In this document: piece after piece, positions 9,676-61,325 of the stretch
Layout of the letters: every line of letters begins with the position of its first letter
How positions within the stretch are numbered: position 1 is the stretch's first letter
NCBI GenBank assembly: GCA_964408285.1
Contig: CAYOYV010000001.1
Span: forward strand, 192,001-256,000
DNA: 64,000 bases
Origin: an uncultured Nitrososphaerota archaeon
Lineage (GTDB): Archaea; Thermoproteota; EX4484-205; JAAOZO01
Direction: 5' to 3'
Position numbers and translations under genes: made by a program
The notes under the pieces: generated by a model
Seen by the model: only the letters and a program-made list of their open reading frames with translations
Database searches by the model: none
Told to the model about the DNA's origin: nothing

Positions 9676-11049
9676 ATGTATGATGTTGTGATAGTGGGGG
9701 CGGGACCAGCAGGTGCCACAGCTGCACGATATGCTGCGAAATCCGGCCTTAAGGTCGCGCTTCTGGACAAAGAACCATCGGGCAGGATTGGTGACAAGGT
9801 TTGCGGTAATGCACTAGGAACTGGGGTGTTTGCCCAATTGGGCCTGAATCCGCCCAAGTCGGCCCATTACGGTGTGGTAAATGGCATTGAGATAATCTCT
9901 CCGGACAGACAGGTCACCTACAGACTGGAGGAAGAAGGCACTAGCGGAATAATGCTCGACAGGCTAGGATTCGGGCAGTATCTCCTGCAACTCTCCATCG
10001 ACGGAGGTGCAGAATTGCATGATGATTTCGCGGTCACTTCCGGAATAGTGGAGAATGGGGCAGTCGCTGGCGTGAAAGGAAAAACAATGTCAGACGGAAG
10101 GACTTCGGAATTTCGAGCAAAGGTGACGATCGATGCATCGGGCGCGGGGGCGATTCTCAGGAGAGGGCTGGGAGGCCTAGTGGACAATGAGCTGGCAGAT
10201 GACGAGACTATGGTGTGCTACAGGCGGATTGTCAAGAGCGACGCTCAATATCCAATGTTTTCTCGGATATATCTGAACCAGGTCCTTTGTCCAGGCGGAT
10301 ACTTCTGGCTCTTCCCAATGGGAGAGGGTCTCATCAACATGGGAGTGGGTGTGGCAAGGAACACTTTGGACCCGAGAGAGGCCTATCAAAGCTTTGCACG
10401 AACAATCCCGGGAATAGAGGACTCGAAGGTAATTCATGAAGGCGGTGCAATAGTGCCAACTAGAAGGCCGATGATTCCGTCTGTCTGGAATGCTATTCTC
10501 TTCATAGGCGATGCGGGATTTACGGTGGATCCGATAACTGGAGGGGGCATCGGTGCTTCAATGATATCGGGCAAGATAGCTGCCGAAGCAGTAGTGGCGT
10601 CATCGGAGGCAGACGGAAGCTCGATAGAATCTCTCTGGGATTTCTGCGTCAGATACAACGAGATTCAGGGAAGGACCTATGCAATCGAAGACATTGTCAG
10701 GATATTCCTCCAAGGTCTTCACAATGAGGAAGCTGATTTTGGCATGAAGCATAGGCTCATAACAGAAGATGACATAAAGGCCTTAATGAGTGGAAGACGG
10801 TTCGTGATAACCGTCCTTGATGAAGCCGCCAGAGTCGCACAGGGCATCGCGAAAGCAGAATTGCTCGTAAGATTGGCCAAGCTATCGATCATCCTTGACA
10901 AGGTGTCGAAGCATTATCTCAGCTTCCCCTCCTCTCCGAACCAGCTCTACGAATGGAAGCTCAAAGACAAGGAATTGCATGAGAGTGCACACGCGGAACT
11001 TGGATTGGACACTCTCAGGAAGGCCATGAAGCCATCGAAGGATAGCTGA
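9676..11049 (+). CDS. Digeranylgeranylglycerophospholipid (geranylgeranyl) reductase family flavoprotein
   Basis: DVVIVGAGPAG FAD motif, KVCG, PGGYFWLFP, IGDAGFTVDPITGGGI. Confidence 0.9.
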   Translation: MYDVVIVGAGPAGATAARYAAKSGLKVALLDKEPSGRIGDKVCGNALGTGVFAQLGLNPPKSAHYGVVNGIEIISPDRQVTYRLEEEGTSGIMLDRLGFGQYLLQLSIDGGAELHDDFAVTSGIVENGAVAGVKGKTMSDGRTSEFRAKVTIDASGAGAILRRGLGGLVDNELADDETMVCYRRIVKSDAQYPMFSRIYLNQVLCPGGYFWLFPMGEGLINMGVGVARNTLDPREAYQSFARTIPGIEDSKVIHEGGAIVPTRRPMIPSVWNAILFIGDAGFTVDPITGGGIGASMISGKIAAEAVVASSEADGSSIESLWDFCVRYNEIQGRTYAIEDIVRIFLQGLHNEEADFGMKHRLITEDDIKALMSGRRFVITVLDEAARVAQGIAKAELLVRLAKLSIILDKVSKHYLSFPSSPNQLYEWKLKDKELHESAHAELGLDTLRKAMKPSKDS

Positions 11050-12720
11050 AATCTGCAGATGCAGGTCGGATTTCCAAGCCGGATTTCCTGGCAAAGGCAG
11101 CTGAGATAAATGCGTAGAATGCGGGATTCGGAGCACCGGGCCAACTCTTGAATTCGGGATGATATTGCGCGGCAAAATAGAAGGGGTGTGTCCTAAGCTC
11201 CAGGATCTCAATCCTTCCATCATCGGAAAAGCCTGATGCGACATAATGGGATTTCTCAAGCATCGGAACATAAGTCCTATTCAATTCATACCTATGCCTG
11301 TGCCTTTCATAGATTTCAAGGCCCCTGTATATCCTATGTGCAAGAGTACCTTGTTTGATGGTTATCCTTGAGGAGCCCAACCTTTGGGTTCCGCCCATTT
11401 CAAGATTCTGATTCTGCTCTGTGGAAAGCCTGACGATCGGAACAGAGGTATGCGGGTCGATCTCTGTCGTATTCGCATCATCTAATCGAAGAACATCCCT
11501 CGCGAATTCGACCGCGGACAATTGAAATCCGAAACATATGCCAAGGAATGGGATTCCATTTTCCCGAGCTCGTTTCATAGCAATCATTTTGCCCACGGAT
11601 CCCCTGATTCCATACCCGCCTGGTACCAGCACGCCATGGCAGCCATCAAGCATCAAATCGGGATCTTTGGCTAATTCGAGTTCCTCCGATTCGACGAATT
11701 TGACCAACACCCTGACGCTCATTTTGCCGCCAGCATGCTTCAGAGCGTCCACAACGCTGATGTAGCTATCCTCGAGAGCCACATATTTCCCCACCAACGC
11801 AATCCTCACTTCATCTCTTGGATTGACTATGCCATCGATTGCCTCTTTCCAGGGTGTCCAGTTGGACTCGCCGCAGGGCAATGCGAGCTTTGCGCACAGG
11901 AGTGTGCCCAGACCTTGGGTCTCCAGATGCTTTGGCAGTTCGTATACGCATGAGAGATCAGTTGCGCAAAAAGCTGAGTCTCTTTGTATGGATGAGAAAA
12001 GAGCAACTTTGGACATCACTTCGTCATTCGGAAGGCCCTTTGATCTTACAAAGACCAAGTCCGGTTGGAGACCTATTCTCCTGAGCTCTTGGACGCTGTG
12101 CTGCAATGGCTTCGTCTTGTATTCCTTCGTGACCTCAAGAAAAGGGACGAGAGCAACATGGGCGATGAGAGTGTTTGAGCGCCCCTCTTCAAGTCGCATC
12201 TGTCTGATCGCCTCGAAGAATGGCATGCCTTCTATGTCACCTACTGTCCCGCCGATCTCGATAACTGACACATCGGTCTTTGAGGCCTGCCTTATCCTGC
12301 TTATGATCTCATCCGTAACGTGCGGTATGATTTGTACGCACTTCCCTAGATACTCTCCTCTTCTTTCCCTTCGGATTACCTCGAGATATACTTGCCCGGT
12401 TGTGATGTTGCTGCTTCTGCTCAAGGTCGTGAGCAAGAACCTTTCGTATCTTCCTATATCGAGGTCTGTTTCTCCTCCGTCTTCAGTTACAAAGACCTCT
12501 CCATGAACAAATGGATTCATGAGCCCACTGTCATAATTCAAGTATGGATCGATCTTCACGGCCGTTACGCGAAAGCCTCTAACCTGGAGAACCTTGCCTA
12601 TGGAGGCGGCGATCGATCCCTTCCCAAATGCTCCCCGGGCTAGGCCGAGTCTGAGCTAAGAACGCCACCAGTCACGAAAACATACTTAGTCCTCTTGGAC
12701 TTCTCCTGTCCCCCTTCCAT
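11015..12720 (-). CDS. pyrG: CTP synthase, spliced gene: complement(join(11015..12627,12651..12720)), 560 aa
   Basis: Exon 1 from ATG 12720 reads MEGGQEKSKRTKYVFVTGGVLSS. Exon 2 continues (V)GKGSIAASIGKVLQVRGFRVTAVKIDPY and includes HGEVFVTEDGGETDLD, KTKPLQHSV, GICFGFQ, ERHRHRYE and QYHPEF. Exon lengths 70+1613=1683 nt, i.e. 561 codons. Confidence 0.95.
12628..12650 (-). other. 23-nt bulge-helix-bulge (BHB) intron in the pyrG mRNA
   Basis: mRNA reads UUCUUA-GCUC-AG^A-CUCGG-CCUAGC-CCGGG-GAGC-AU^U-UGGGAA: 6-bp outer helix, perfect 4-bp central helix GCUC/GAGC, two 3-nt bulges, 5-bp intron stem. The intron contains an in-frame UAG; its removal restores L-S-S-V-G-K-G. Confidence 0.9.
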
Positions 12721-12744
12721 AGGTCATGCGTGCCATGCAAAGGC

Positions 12745-12751
12745 TAATAAA
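12745..12751 (-). promoter_or_regulatory. TATA box for pyrG exon 1
   Basis: TTTATTA on the minus strand about 25 nt upstream of ATG 12720, consistent with a near-leaderless transcript. Confidence 0.55.
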
Positions 12752-12778
12752 TGCTTGAACCTACCAGCGCGATTTGAG

Positions 12779-12943
12779 ATGTCAACGAAATCTGTAGAGA
12801 AGATTGCTGCAGGCGAGAATCTACTAGGGAAAATCTATGAGGAAGCTACAATCATAGAGAACATCATTCTCTCTCAGTCAGTTGGCACTGATCACACGGC
12901 ACTTGTGATGGACAAGAGCAAGCCTGCACCTAGATTGGGCTAA
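12779..12943 (+). CDS. Small hypothetical protein (54 aa)
   Basis: MSTKSVEKIAAGENLLGKIYEEATIIENIILS...; fills the gap between the divergent promoter region and the next gene; no family recognised. Confidence 0.35.
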   Translation: MSTKSVEKIAAGENLLGKIYEEATIIENIILSQSVGTDHTALVMDKSKPAPRLG

Positions 12944-12965
12944 CGAGAGCGGAGTATGAAACACG

Positions 12966-14255
12966 ATGAGATTGATAATTTTCGAGGATGATGCTACCCA
13001 TAACTTTGAGCCTTTGACGCTCACAAGGGGTTCATTCGATCTCAGGCTAGGCATTCTATCGTTCTGGGAGCGCACGAAAATTCTCACAAAGGCGCACACA
13101 GTCGATTTCCTTGCAAGGGACTACATTGCAAGCCATGTCTCACGCGAGAGGAAGGTGAAAGGCAATGAACCTGACGCAATAGACGACGAGGCTCTGTTTG
13201 TCAACGCATTGCTCGTACTTGATGCGGATCTGCAGAAAAAAGCTAAGACGATGAAGGCTGGGACGGCCCTCTTCAAGAAGGGAAGGCTCGCAATGGCCAA
13301 GTTCGGTGAGGCTCCGGCAAAGGAAGCAGCCAGGTTGCTCATGGGGGCACCCGGTCTTCAGTCCGTGGGATCCATCGAGTCAATGGCAATCGAGAGGCAG
13401 GAATGCGAGGGTGGTTTGCTGATTTCGAACTATTGGGAAATAGTGGAGAAGAATGCAGCCCAGATAGCCAGCGATTTCGATCTCATGCCCAAGAAGAACT
13501 CACAAGCAATCTCAGCCAAGACCCGGTTCGTGGGAAAGAAGCGAAACCTGTTCATAGCCAAAAGCTCGAGGGTGGATCCCTATCTCTACGTTGACGCAGA
13601 AACCGGGCCTGTATACATAGGCGAAGACTGCCAAATCAACGCTTGGTGCTTCATTCAGGGCCCAAGCTACATAGGCGCTGGGACCATAATACATCCCTCT
13701 TCTGTCATAAGGGAAGGTTCGAACATAGGACCTGTCTGCAGGGTAGGAGGGGAGGTAGAGGAGAGTGTGATGCAGGCCCATTCAAACAAACCACATGCCG
13801 GGTTTCTGGGCCACGCTTACGTCGGAGAGTGGGCAAATCTTGGGGCGATGTTCACAAACTCCGATCTGAAGAATACATACGGTTCGATCAAGGTGACAGT
13901 GCGAGGACGCAAATTAGACTCAGGGACGATTAAACTTGGAGGAATGATTGGGGATCATGCCAAGGGATCGATAGGATCCTTGTTGTACACCGGCAAGAAA
14001 GTGGGCGTCTGTTCTCAGATACACGGCGTCGTACAGGAGGATGTTCCGTCGTTCGTGCTCTATGCGAAAACCCTCGGAATTCCAGTTTGGGAACTAGGAC
14101 CGGATGAGTCGATCCAAGTTGCACGAAGGGTGATGTCAAGACGAAAGGTCGAGATGACAAAGGCTGACGAGGACCTGCTGAGGAAGGTATTCGAAGTCAC
14201 CAAGTCAGAGCGCGAAGCCATGAAACCGCAGAGAGGACCATTCTCCTTTGCATAG
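12966..14255 (+). CDS. GlmU-related putative sugar nucleotidyltransferase with left-handed beta-helix
   Basis: FEPLTLTRGSFDLRLG N-terminus; hexapeptide repeats; SNKPHAGFLGHAYVGEWANLGA, SDLKNTYG. Confidence 0.85.
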   Translation: MRLIIFEDDATHNFEPLTLTRGSFDLRLGILSFWERTKILTKAHTVDFLARDYIASHVSRERKVKGNEPDAIDDEALFVNALLVLDADLQKKAKTMKAGTALFKKGRLAMAKFGEAPAKEAARLLMGAPGLQSVGSIESMAIERQECEGGLLISNYWEIVEKNAAQIASDFDLMPKKNSQAISAKTRFVGKKRNLFIAKSSRVDPYLYVDAETGPVYIGEDCQINAWCFIQGPSYIGAGTIIHPSSVIREGSNIGPVCRVGGEVEESVMQAHSNKPHAGFLGHAYVGEWANLGAMFTNSDLKNTYGSIKVTVRGRKLDSGTIKLGGMIGDHAKGSIGSLLYTGKKVGVCSQIHGVVQEDVPSFVLYAKTLGIPVWELGPDESIQVARRVMSRRKVEMTKADEDLLRKVFEVTKSEREAMKPQRGPFSFA

Positions 14256-34476: not shown

Positions 34477-37008
34477 ATGGCTCAAAAGGAAATGTCCTCG
34501 CCTGTCAGGCGCAGATTGTGTTTTGTGCTTATCTATCTTCTAGTGTTCCTGCTGGAACCAAGCACATTCCCAGTGGCAAAAGCGGATACTGAGTTCCAGT
34601 TAGTCACAAGAGCGGAATCTGCCGGCATAACTCAGACTAGTGATTCGTCGTCGGCGTCGCGTTCAGAGTTCGACTACGCGCCGACTCTTGTAGCGCAATT
34701 TTACCTCAACATTACTGCGCATACAAATGCTTCTGCGAACCTCTGGTTCGGGCGCGTGGAGTTGCAGCAAAGTGTCGCAAGGACACTCTATTTGGCAAGA
34801 AATGGTTCCGGCTTGCTGCGCGCCTATCTAAATAACACCCTGATAACCTCTGCATCGTTCAACATAAGCAAAATGACCTGGTACAAGGTTGTGATCTCAT
34901 ATGCCACGAACAATGATACTTTGATGGTGACTATACAGACCGAAGGGAGCGGAACGGTCCCTATCCAGGTCGTCAATCGGTTGCTCGATCCTCCTTTCAG
35001 GCGCGGGATTGCCTTCACGATAGGATGGTTGAGTCATGGCTTTTCCTCTCCAGGTTCTGTTCTTGTCAAGAATTTCAGACTCGATGTTTCACCAATGTTG
35101 AACATTTCCCTTCCTGTTTCAAATCCAGGTGATACTGTCAGCATCAAGGGGATTCAATTTGATCCGTATCAAAACATAAACGTGACGATCGCATCGCTCA
35201 TCAATCAGGCAGTCTATTCAAATCCCTCCGTTCCAACGGATGGTCAAGGCAAATTTGATATTTCCCTGCAATTGCCGCAGACCCTAAAGCCGGGTCTCTA
35301 CCATGTGTTTGCCAAGCAACCCTACGGGCCCAGGGTGAAATTCCACCTCGGCGTATGGGGGCTCGGAGTAGCTCAGGCAAACAGAACACTACCGATCAAT
35401 TTCACAGGTAGTGGATTCAGAATTGGTTCCATCGTCAGGGTGACTATGAGGAGGACCTACCCTGCATATTTCTTCAGCGAGATATATACGGTGAGCGGAA
35501 CCGAGGGGACTTTCGCTTCGACGAAGTTGACATTCCCGCCTAGTTTTCCATTGGGGGCCTATTCTGTCCTGCTTGAAGCATATGGCACTTTGGACTACTT
35601 CAACTACCCCTTCTCTGATGCCTATGAGATCAATATAGGAAAGGCTCCTCTTTTCGTCACAGTTGAGACGTCACAAGCCGTCTACCTAAGGACTCAGTTG
35701 GCGAGGATATACGCTAACGCTAGATACGCCAATGGAAGCAGAATTCCATCCGTATCGGCATTTACATTGAACGTGAAGCAAGGGGCGAACACGGTCATCG
35801 CTGGTCAGGTCATGACTTACGATCCAGGTCTCCAGAAATGGTCTTGGGGTTTCATTCTTGTCAAGGAGAATCCTATCGGTATCCACAATGCTGTCACCTA
35901 CGCAGTCGACCCATATGGAAATACTGGATCTGGAACCGGGAATTTCGAAGTGAAGCCCGCTCAATTGAAAGTCGATCTATATGATAATAAGACGACCTAT
36001 CAGAGAAGTGAAACGATTAGCATTAACGCAAACCTTGCGTATCCGGATGGCAGTCCTGCGACAACAGGAACTTATCTTGTTGTCGGATCCATTGGCACCG
36101 TCACCCATTCTTCCGGCCTAATCTATGAGACCAAATCTGGGCTTTGGAAGAGTTCGATCATGATTCTCCCCGGAGATCCTGTTGGAACTTGGAAGGTAAC
36201 CATGTCAGGATCAGATCCTCAAGGCAATCTACTCAACTACTCGTTCGGTGTGACAATACTAGCAGCAAACCTGAACATCACAATAATCCCAGATGTGAAT
36301 GCCACGTATCAGAGAACACAGAGTGTTTCGCTGCAGTTGGTCGCAAAATATCCTTCAGGTCAAGTCCTATCCGTGGGTACCTTGACGGCAAATGCGACAA
36401 GAGGTCAGGGGCTTCAGACCTACTCTTCTGTATTGCAATTCAACTCCCAATCTCAGCTGTGGAAGGGCGCATTGAAACTACCTGCCAATGCCCCAATTGA
36501 CATGTACCTATTGGTTGTGAAGGCAGTTGATCAGTTCGGGAATGCCGGAAATCAAACCAGACGGATATCCGTGGTCGCAGCAACACTGAAACTGAACATT
36601 AGCACCCCGAAGAAAGAATTCCAAATCGGATTCGAATCAGTGAAGCTGTCGGGGGCTGTGTTCTATCCTGACGGGACGGCCCTGATGTCGGGCAATGTGA
36701 GTGCCAAGATTACTGTGGGCGCCAGCTCGAAAGCGATTATTTTCACTCAGGAATCAGGAATCTGGACGGGCAGCCTCCAGACAGGATTCTTCGATCCCGG
36801 GGGAGATTATCTTTTCGTCATAACTGCATCTGACGTCTACGATAACTCCGGGTCAGTATCTCTGTCCCTAACGGGAAGCCAACTCTATGTTGCTCTTTCA
36901 CTAGTGGGCATAATATTGGCAATCGCAATCGCTGCCGCACTGATATGGAGATACAGGCAGATGAGGACTGGAGCACCATCGCCGGTCGAGGCAGAATATT
37001 ACCTCTAG
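34477..37008 (+). CDS. Large secreted, C-terminally anchored surface (glyco)protein with Ig-like repeats
   Basis: Signal peptide (RRR then hydrophobic then AKA), many N-x-S/T sequons, beta-rich composition, C-terminal TM helix followed by WRYR. Confidence 0.85.
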   Translation: MAQKEMSSPVRRRLCFVLIYLLVFLLEPSTFPVAKADTEFQLVTRAESAGITQTSDSSSASRSEFDYAPTLVAQFYLNITAHTNASANLWFGRVELQQSVARTLYLARNGSGLLRAYLNNTLITSASFNISKMTWYKVVISYATNNDTLMVTIQTEGSGTVPIQVVNRLLDPPFRRGIAFTIGWLSHGFSSPGSVLVKNFRLDVSPMLNISLPVSNPGDTVSIKGIQFDPYQNINVTIASLINQAVYSNPSVPTDGQGKFDISLQLPQTLKPGLYHVFAKQPYGPRVKFHLGVWGLGVAQANRTLPINFTGSGFRIGSIVRVTMRRTYPAYFFSEIYTVSGTEGTFASTKLTFPPSFPLGAYSVLLEAYGTLDYFNYPFSDAYEINIGKAPLFVTVETSQAVYLRTQLARIYANARYANGSRIPSVSAFTLNVKQGANTVIAGQVMTYDPGLQKWSWGFILVKENPIGIHNAVTYAVDPYGNTGSGTGNFEVKPAQLKVDLYDNKTTYQRSETISINANLAYPDGSPATTGTYLVVGSIGTVTHSSGLIYETKSGLWKSSIMILPGDPVGTWKVTMSGSDPQGNLLNYSFGVTILAANLNITIIPDVNATYQRTQSVSLQLVAKYPSGQVLSVGTLTANATRGQGLQTYSSVLQFNSQSQLWKGALKLPANAPIDMYLLVVKAVDQFGNAGNQTRRISVVAATLKLNISTPKKEFQIGFESVKLSGAVFYPDGTALMSGNVSAKITVGASSKAIIFTQESGIWTGSLQTGFFDPGGDYLFVITASDVYDNSGSVSLSLTGSQLYVALSLVGIILAIAIAAALIWRYRQMRTGAPSPVEAEYYL
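35640..36870 (+). repeat. Four ~100-aa protein-level Ig/MG-like repeats (approximate bounds)
   Basis: Repeat starts YLRTQ..YANGS, YQRSE..YPDGS, YQRTQ..YPSGQ, FQIGFE..YPDGT; each ends in D-x-x-G/D-N. Confidence 0.65.
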
Positions 37009-55857: not shown

Positions 55858-55868
55858 GAGCCAGCCTA

Positions 55869-56159
55869 TCATAACGCCATCCCGAATGCCTTCAGGAAGG
55901 ATCTCGCCTTGTCATATTGCTCTAGGAATTCCAGACCTTTTTCCGTCAGCGTATAGAATCTCCGATCATCGTCACTTTCCTCCTGTATTAGTCCCTGCTG
56001 CAGTAGCTGGCTGAGCCTTGTTTCCAATCTATCCGTTGGGAGATTTGCTTTCTGCATGATTCGGGTCTTCCCTACGCGTTCTTCTTCTCTCACTGCCTCC
56101 AAGATGTCGGCCAATATTGACACACTCGAACGATATCTCTTCGAGGTCCTAAGGGTCAT
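55869..56159 (-). CDS. Winged-helix transcriptional regulator (HTH_45-like)
   Basis: RSSVSILADIL, KTRIMQKANL, YTLTEKGLEFL. Confidence 0.88.
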   Translation of the reverse strand: MTLRTSKRYRSSVSILADILEAVREEERVGKTRIMQKANLPTDRLETRLSQLLQQGLIQEESDDDRRFYTLTEKGLEFLEQYDKARSFLKAFGMAL

Positions 56160-56873: not shown

Positions 56874-56895
56874 GGCTATGGCTTCAAGACAATGG

Positions 56896-56976
56896 GCCAG
56901 GGTGGCCGATTGGAAGGCGGCGGGCTGCAGCGAAGCGGCGACCCACTTCACGGGGGTTCGAATCCCTCCCCTGGCT
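56896..56976 (+). tRNA. tRNA-Cys(GCA) with 10-nt intron at 37/38 (56931-56940)
   Basis: Acceptor GCCAGGG/CCCTGGC, discriminator U73, T-arm GGGGG-TTCGAAT-CCCTC, anticodon GCA at 56927-56929; CCA not encoded. Confidence 0.9.
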
Positions 56977-56979
56977 TCA

Positions 56980-60702: not shown

Positions 60703-61325
60703 CAGTCGGCCTATTTGCCCATGAGGAGATCTCCCCAGATGGGCCCTTTATCGAAGAATTACCCCTATCCGGAAAGAAGTCCATGGCTTGGCTTCTGGAT
60801 AGAATAAGTGGGATAGCCGACTGCGTCATTGTCGTATCTCGATCTCATGGAAGACTTGAATCCATGGAAAGGATTATGGCAGACGATGGCAGGTTTGAGT
60901 ACAAGCTCTTGATTGAGGACTCGAAAGCCATTACCAGCATGTCAATTGCGGCACTGTCGGGTTTAGCAGACGAGGATTCAATGCTGGTAATGCCCACCTT
61001 CTCCCCCCTCATACCTGTCGATGTCCTAAGTCTAGTGGTGGAGTTGCTGGATGGCAGACATGCAGTCTTCGTCAGAGACAGAACGGGCGGTCTGTATAAG
61101 TATCTCTTCTCCGTTAGAGTCGAAGAGGGCAGGAATGCGTTTGGCCATCTGAGAGCAAAAGAGGAAGACCTGTATGAAATCCCTCAGCAACTTAGGAGGA
61201 CAATGACGATATCTTGGACCGCTCTTTCGACAATGGACCCTCTTCACCTGACCTTCTTCAGAATCCGTTCTAGGCTAGATCTGCCTCTCGGAGAAAAAAT
61301 GCTATCGAGGGTGGGAGGCAGTTGA
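60690..61325 (+). CDS. Divergent MobA/CofC-like nucleotidyltransferase fold protein
   Basis: LSGKKSMAWLL...VIVV, SPLI, DPLHLTFFRI (compare MobA DPxLxSFFNIN); lacks LAGG. Confidence 0.5.
   Translation: MDKVAVGLFAHEEISPDGPFIEELPLSGKKSMAWLLDRISGIADCVIVVSRSHGRLESMERIMADDGRFEYKLLIEDSKAITSMSIAALSGLADEDSMLVMPTFSPLIPVDVLSLVVELLDGRHAVFVRDRTGGLYKYLFSVRVEEGRNAFGHLRAKEEDLYEIPQQLRRTMTISWTALSTMDPLHLTFFRIRSRLDLPLGEKMLSRVGGS

Follow-up and report, generated by a model that had tools for sequence, protein, structure and literature searches.

A bulge-helix-bulge insert, very probably a spliced intron, in the only CTP synthase gene found in an uncultured Nitrososphaerota genome

We analysed a 64,000-nucleotide stretch of DNA (the window) from an uncultured Nitrososphaerota archaeon (GCA_964408285.1, contig CAYOYV010000001.1, positions 192,001 to 256,000), in which the CTP (cytidine triphosphate) synthase gene, pyrG, is interrupted near its 5′ end by a 23-nt insert. 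Together with its flanks, the insert folds into a structure of the bulge-helix-bulge (BHB) type cut by the tRNA-splicing endonuclease, EndA. Judged from the sequence, this insert is very likely a genuine intron, spliced by EndA and the ligase RtcB, in the only pyrG of the genome. A preliminary description of the window had proposed that PyrG depends on tRNA-type splicing here, and the single gene copy, the EndA and RtcB genes, the BHB motifs of relatives and the purely synonymous variation of exon 1 all support that proposal.

The pyrG gene lies on the minus strand, and its entry in the list of open reading frames (ORFs), 11015..12559, comprises 514 amino acids from a GTG start, with the N-terminus MKIDPY. 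The conserved beginning of CTP synthase is found upstream of this entry, where the ATG at 12720, the first start following an in-frame stop, begins a 23-codon frame whose end reads ...KYVFVTGGVLSS. This frame meets a TAG inside the insert, and the remainder of PyrG (GKGS...) is read in a different frame from 12625 downward, the offset being the 23-nt insert. The N-terminus missing from the listed ORF and located upstream from the ATG, the in-frame UAG and the frameshift, as announced in the preliminary description, can thus all be read directly in the sequence (Table 1). The conserved N-terminal strand is encoded by exon 1, as is the first half of the nucleotide-binding motif GGV-x-SS-x-GKG. 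Exon 2 alone matches the NCBIfam models TIGR00337 (651.5 bits; cut-off 462.75) and NF003792 (680.1 bits) and also the Pfam domains CTP_synth_N and GATase, identifying the product as a glutamine-hydrolysing CTP synthase. Its first residue corresponds to position 14 of 265 in the CTP_synth_N profile and to position 17 of 526 in the NCBIfam PyrG profile; the start of the profile is absent from exon 2 and is therefore exactly what exon 1 supplies. A TATA-like TTTATTA precedes the exon-1 ATG, and a near-identical TTTATTTAGCCTTTGCA stretch is also found upstream of the exon-1 ATG in the metagenome locus L036. By the usual geometry of archaeal promoters, this suggests a putative promoter element and a leaderless or short-leader transcript beginning at exon 1.

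Both the minimum free energy (MFE) structure and the centroid structure of 12615-12670 (minus strand) contain the exact helix-bulge-helix-bulge-helix (hBHBh′) motif. Two 3-nt bulges on opposite strands surround a 4-bp helix, and the flanking helices, for which at least 2 bp are demanded of a BHB, have 6 and 5 bp. The helices, bulges and inner stem of the MFE structure are those drawn in the preliminary description, which had called the fold a textbook BHB. Each bulge sits 3′ of its own central-helix strand, which is the arrangement in pre-tRNA introns. We scanned both strands of the 1.82-Mb genome for BHB motifs with insert lengths of 9-60 nt, an outer helix of 6 bp or more, an inner helix of 5 bp or more, no more than three G-U pairs and a central helix made entirely of Watson-Crick pairs. 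Eight motifs of equal or better quality were found over 3,642,428 strand positions, and at a length of 23 nt that of pyrG is alone; from this count, the chance of such a fold at any given site is of the order of 1e-6. Rfam gave no match at the insert and two chance-level matches elsewhere within 12300-13000. A blastn-short search with the BHB region against the genome returned the region itself and chance matches of 10-14 nt only, with no trace of a mobile or copied intron.

A cut after the second base of each bulge would remove 12650-12628, create a Val codon across the joint (G|TT) and give a protein of 560 amino acids. The contiguous N-terminal GGV-x-S-x-x-GKG motif, which is split in the genomic reading, appears only once these nucleotides are removed, and the alignment of the predicted spliced PyrG to L007 and L038, two intact homologues, is ungapped at the junction. 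The join made in silico and the alignment reproduce the restored motif and the protein length that had been claimed at the outset for this excision. When the same cut rule is applied to the 22-nt inserts of L005, L006, L034 and L036 (see below), the resulting PyrG proteins are likewise colinear with the intact homologues, and the five sequences range from 555 to 564 amino acids.

Table 1. Features of the interrupted pyrG locus (window positions) and of other interrupted genes in the same genome (G000, contig:positions)
Feature	Position	Strand	Remarks
pyrG exon 1	12651..12720	-	ATG, 22 codons and first base of Val codon; translation
Candidate BHB intron, 23 nt	12628..12650	-	in-frame TAG at 12642-12640; length no multiple of 3
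pyrG exon 2	11015..12627	-	last two Val-codon bases, 536 codons and stop
Complete hBHBh′ motif	12621..12662	-	MFE and centroid fold
Outer helix, 6 bp	12662-12657 with 12626-12621	-	MFE fold
Central helix, 4 bp	12656-12653 with 12633-12630	-	MFE fold
Bulges, 3 nt each, opposite strands	12652-12650 and 12629-12627	-	MFE fold
Inner stem, 5 bp	12649-12645 with 12638-12634	-	MFE fold
Loop, 6 nt	12644-12639	-	MFE fold
Predicted cuts	12651/12650 and 12628/12627	-	after second base of each bulge
TATA-like TTTATTA	12745..12751	-	about 27 nt upstream of exon-1 ATG; read from sequence
aIF5B (IF-2) insert 1, 22 nt	C6:68725..68746	-	splits P-loop (..VLGH / VDHGKT..); loci L102, L120-L145
aIF5B insert 2, 19 nt	C6:68631..68649	-	after ..EAGGI; loci L102, L120-L145
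dnaG insert, 21 nt	C15:5526..5546	-	in-frame TAA, between ..EGVVD and KHDVIGA..; loci L101, L146-L169
cbf5 insert, 15 nt	C6:39016..39030 (L100:1697-1711)	+	in-frame TGA, inside catalytic GTLD/P; loci L189-L213, L237-L242

We found one pyrG match in this metagenome-assembled genome (MAG; 46 contigs, 93.7% complete), and the intact second copy that the preliminary description had named as a point to check was looked for and not found in it. The genome encodes two EndA paralogues of 194 and 217 amino acids, and both Pfam endonuclease domains are present in each. Their genes are located in the regions C4:48740-48997 and C8:13446-13700. One paralogue corresponds to the catalytic, C-terminal half of the fused archaeal enzyme, and its partner to the structural, N-terminal half, with a weak match to a beta-subunit model. 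Two EndA paralogues are the mark of the heterotetrameric enzyme, and because the genome has two, its EndA is probably an (alpha-beta)2 heterotetramer. A single RtcB gene (C15:34836-36143; 560.7 bits) is also present. The heterotetrameric type of EndA is one that cuts non-canonical introns, according to PMC5829648.

The class to which this archaeon belongs comprises 26 species genomes, 21 of them with a pyrG match. The alignment starts at residue 12-13 of the intact query in three of the 21 (the window genome, G002 and G004) and at residues 1-3 in the other 18. Inspection of the pyrG DNA at 30 loci revealed a 22-nt insert at the same codon in G002 and G004, which belong to a sister genus, and a contiguous gene at 27 loci. 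A metagenome scan added 41 pyrG loci; 12 were inspected and four carry an insert. Two of these inserts (L034 and L035) resemble those of the sister genus, and the other two (L036 and L037, on contigs of 1.47 and 1.38 Mb) represent a third variant. At the codon where the window has 23 nt, a 22-nt insert is thus found in L005, L006, L034, L035, L036 and L037. The 12-nt junction string occurred only in the intron-bearing loci and the window when all loci collected up to then were searched.

These loci provide five distinct intron-bearing sequences, and the PyrG proteins of the other four are 65.6-67.8% identical to that of the window. All exon-1 and exon-2 frames are intact in the five. Exon 1 has 12 conserved codons; eight differ among the five sequences, in every case by a synonymous change of the third base. 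Two Ser codons make up the 5′ strand of the central helix, and they are invariant where the intron is present; the same codons vary freely in intron-less relatives. The central helix (four pairs) and the inner helix (five pairs) are 100% paired over the five sequences, with one pair changed on both sides (G-C to U-A) and two on one side only, and pairing falls to 44-65% when the partner columns are slid. The in-frame UAG in the loop is kept by every intron variant, which may reflect inheritance alone.

In a quick maximum-likelihood tree of 30 PyrG sequences, the five intron-bearing rows form one clade with a Shimodaira-Hasegawa-like approximate likelihood ratio test (SH-aLRT) value of 99, and the sister of this clade is an intron-less metagenome sequence. 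The simplest account is that a small clade of the class acquired the pyrG intron in its ancestor, by a single gain. As a separate observation, the pyrG genes of two genera of the class (g2 and g6; L022-L033) fall in another clade than those of the window, genus g3 and family f3, and have bacterial (planctomycete) and other sequences as neighbours, which suggests two pyrG lineages inside one class, possibly arising by gene replacement.

The proposed pathway would start from a promoter just upstream of the ATG at 12720, which would yield a pyrG precursor mRNA containing the 23-nt intron. The exon-intron junctions of this precursor would adopt the canonical hBHBh′ motif, EndA would cleave each 3-nt bulge after its second base, and RtcB would ligate the exons and probably make the intron circular. 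This ligation would recreate the Val codon and a contiguous GGVLSS-V-GKG, giving the 560-residue CTP synthase, and CTP synthesis would depend on both cleavage and ligation. On an unspliced mRNA, translation would end at the in-frame UAG after 27 codons, and a start at the internal GTG would give a product without the nucleotide-binding N-terminus.

Several observations weigh against a genuine spliced intron. The folding energy of the region is unremarkable (-15.3 kcal/mol, z = +0.8), and of 200 shuffled sequences 156 have a fold that is no less stable. Pairing of the outer helix amounts to 76.7% over the five sequences, this helix being reduced in the relatives to 3-4 bp or interrupted (three pairs in L005 and L034, and an A.G mismatch beside the closing pair in L036). 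The PyrG tree is a quick version and provisional, and a second pyrG might lie in the missing part of this fragmented MAG. A search for sequencing runs containing this DNA gave DNA runs (X1-X9) and no RNA run. As to what the preliminary description expected of relatives, intron presence was found in the sister genus and in metagenome contigs, and the expected covariation came down to the one compensatory pair: 48 of 500 column shuffles score at least as high, there being just three independent intron variants.

If the intron is real, its removal could also be regulated, tuning CTP synthase through EndA/RtcB capacity, through guanosine triphosphate (GTP) or through decay after cleavage without ligation. 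The in-frame stop would silence unspliced mRNA, the other interrupted genes of the lineage (see below) serve core functions (translation initiation, primase/exosome, rRNA pseudouridylation), and in Haloferax a knock-down of EndA reduces expression of the intron-bearing HVO_1309, according to PMC7714728. However, the pyrG intron is absent from sister lineages (27 of 30 loci), a neutral, tolerated insertion fits equally well, and the GTP argument, put forward in the preliminary description, is an analogy only and found no support; we therefore consider such regulation an unlikely addition to splicing itself.

It is very improbable that pyrG is instead a dead gene, inactivated by a 23-nt insertion with a coincidental fold, in a cell obtaining CTP by salvage or from an unassembled second copy. 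The TAG and the frameshift do break the unspliced reading, and the incompleteness of the genome leaves room for another copy. Yet the same site is interrupted in sequences of about 66-68% PyrG identity, and every exon-1 and exon-2 frame has stayed open in them (536 codons in exon 2 here). The variation of exon 1 in eight of 12 codons is synonymous only, the bulge rule restores the frame each time although the inserts measure 22 or 23 nt, and the chance of about 1e-6 calculated above applies to the fold at this site. With no second copy found, intact frames in five sequences and no amino acid change in exon 1, the locus does not look like a pseudogene.

We also give little credence to a bypass of the insert at translation, by programmed frameshifting or by ribosome hopping over the hairpin. 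A stable hairpin and a stop right after the last exon-1 codons resemble recoding signals, of which phage T4 gene 60 is a known example, and the downstream frame stays open over the 10 codons preceding the 3′ junction. However, the 23-nt and 22-nt inserts would need shifts in opposite directions, and frameshifting would leave about seven extra residues within the invariant GGV-x-SS-x-GKG. Matching take-off and landing codons are absent from the sequence. Moreover, the conserved parts are the BHB helices and the 3-nt bulges, that is, what EndA reads, and the other interrupted genes of the lineage share the BHB alone and not sequence.

An assembly or sequencing artefact, absent from the DNA of the organism, might be suspected in any metagenome-assembled genome and had been flagged for checking in the preliminary description, but it can practically be dismissed, as a Logan contig of run X8 spans the insert without a single difference, X4 and X1 (both of which may be the source sample) have contigs with the identical insert, no insert-less joint was seen among the Logan contigs examined, and variant inserts occupy the same codon in the genomes of two other species and in four metagenome contigs belonging to other projects.

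We compared the pyrG intron with known systems. According to two publications (PMC7714728, 2020; PMC10485636, 2023), processing by the tRNA-splicing endonuclease is known for no archaeal mRNAs other than cbf5 and HVO_1309, and the 2023 review states that more such mRNAs are probably still to be found (PMC10485636). Our literature searches retrieved no pyrG or CTP synthase intron, and broader searches gave cbf5 and HVO_1309 only, most subscription journals lying outside the coverage. Within the literature searched, the pyrG intron would be a new case of a known, very rare kind. The cbf5 pre-mRNA intron of Crenarchaeota was reportedly described by Watanabe in 2002. Like the cbf5 introns, that of pyrG is a BHB intron in a coding frame, with a cut (here predicted) between the second and third bulge residues by a hetero-oligomeric EndA, and both are lineage-specific in distribution, with gain and loss. 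On the other hand, pyrG encodes a metabolic enzyme and Cbf5 is an RNA-modification enzyme, and the host of the pyrG intron is an uncultured sediment lineage belonging to neither Sulfolobales nor Desulfurococcales. The pyrG motif is also a strict hBHBh′, whereas cbf5 introns mostly have unconventional or relaxed BHB motifs, according to Yokobori 2009 (PMC2738675).

HVO_1309 of Haloferax volcanii (Schwarz et al. 2020, PMC7714728; PMC10485636) likewise has a BHB motif in an mRNA and is processed by EndA, as we infer for pyrG. Removal of its intron appears to be needed for good expression (PMC7714728). That intron lies in the 5′ untranslated region and leaves the frame uninterrupted, whereas the pyrG intron interrupts the frame, and the Haloferax EndA is of the homodimeric type, in contrast to the two paralogues of the pyrG host. 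With archaeal tRNA introns, the pyrG intron shares the motif, the presumed enzymes and the size class of the 9-22-nt tRNA inserts of this genome; however, the pyrG exons are coding, so that its helices are built partly from codons. In the HAC1/XBP1 mRNA splicing of eukaryotes, IRE1 cuts, an RtcB-type ligase joins and the process is stress-regulated. The likeness to pyrG consists of a short structured intron, a protein endonuclease, an RtcB-type ligase and a frame change, but the endonuclease is not EndA, the substrate has twin stem-loops and not a BHB, and splicing responds to stress, so that no family membership is implied.

We searched the genome for further introns by combining BHB motifs, ORF fusion and a dicodon score; the scan, which is not exhaustive and overlooks relaxed motifs and short middle exons, recovered pyrG and three other genes, aIF5B, dnaG and cbf5 (Table 1). 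The expectation that this lineage has more such introns in genes that look frameshifted was borne out, with two BHB inserts in aIF5B and one each in dnaG and cbf5. In aIF5B, the 30-residue exon between the two inserts corresponds to positions 19-44 of the NCBIfam profile, and the following exon continues from position 45. The second aIF5B site is occupied in seven of 12 class loci by inserts of 17-22 nt with the same BHB core, and in an eighth locus the frame is broken in the same way; occupation of the first site is confined, among the class loci inspected, to the family of the window.

The second exon of dnaG begins at position 16 of 419 in its profile, and of the 23 class loci, 19 have a BHB whose excision would give back the conserved motif, the other four giving no clear call with the pattern used. 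The dnaG inserts measure 18-32 nt (41 nt in one further locus), and their inner helices are unrelated in sequence. Conservation of structure and not of sequence is, on these comparisons, clear for the putative dnaG intron of this class. Outside the class, dnaG is contiguous in three of five outgroup loci inspected. The length of the open frame did not separate intron-bearing from other dnaG genes cleanly.

As for cbf5, 23 of 24 class loci have a BHB insert of 13-16 nt at the site (NCBIfam profile position about 70), which is probably the classical crenarchaeal cbf5 intron site. Across 81 sampled genomes of the phylum, many other families also show a Cbf5 match interrupted at profile positions 66-71. 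The site of the cbf5 intron may be older than published.

The spread of these introns differs: the cbf5 site extends beyond the class, the dnaG intron is class-wide, and those of aIF5B and pyrG are found in sub-lineages. On balance, we favour the view, with less assurance than for pyrG itself, that the class runs a set of EndA/RtcB-spliced mini-introns of 13-41 nt in core genes (pyrG, aIF5B twice, dnaG and cbf5), with differing ages. These differing ages would therefore mean that the gain of mRNA introns here is ongoing and no one-off event. If true, a canonical BHB intron in an essential metabolic gene present as a single copy, along with those of aIF5B and dnaG, would mean that some archaea can accumulate such introns in coding genes. 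Such a set would also imply that many 'frameshifted' genes of archaeal MAGs are mis-annotated, and it would make this lineage a natural model for the invasion of coding genes by protein-spliced introns. For annotation, the pyrG ORF is called 46 residues short, and aIF5B, dnaG and cbf5 look broken in these genomes. The predicted substrate transcripts of about 60 nt, the two EndA subunits and RtcB are all defined by sequence and can be produced recombinantly, providing a test system.

Generic BHB scans are noisy, giving 19,948 loose hits or 190,180 looser ones, which the ORF-fusion and dicodon filters reduced to 79 and 52 candidates. Most of the filtered candidates were rejected, being adjacent or normal genes by Pfam (L104, L106, L109, L112, L114, L116, L108, L110, L226 and L227). 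An ABC exporter candidate with a 23-nt BHB at C3:34275..34297 was likewise rejected as a false positive, as each orthologue read has two distinct ORFs that overlap, and the supposed intron is coding sequence that is conserved. In this exporter (C3 33270..35083, L103; L214-L225), the membrane and ATPase ORFs overlap in different frames in all class orthologues read, and its paralogues are fused proteins of 606-608 residues.

The tRNA genes of this genome also have inserts. The Rfam tRNA model gave 18 matches in the whole genome, and 11 of the 16 full-length ones span 81-125 nt; several tRNA genes have BHB inserts of 9-22 nt. The tRNA of the window (56895-56978, plus strand) is 81 nt long, and its anticodon was not named by aragorn. 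That program reported 21 tRNAs with odd intron positions, and its intron calls are unreliable. In this genome, tRNA genes are probably interrupted to a large extent and under-detected. Other top-quality BHB motifs of the genome are located on C2 (minus strand, 61137..61156), C3 (minus strand, 90501..90525 and 101326..101366), C5 (plus strand, 11406..11433), C7 (plus strand, 55863..55893) and C11 (minus strand, 35525..35579). Their outer helices span 6-7 bp and their inner helices 5-7 bp, at lengths of 20-55 nt, and these motifs may lie in undetected RNA genes or in further interrupted genes.

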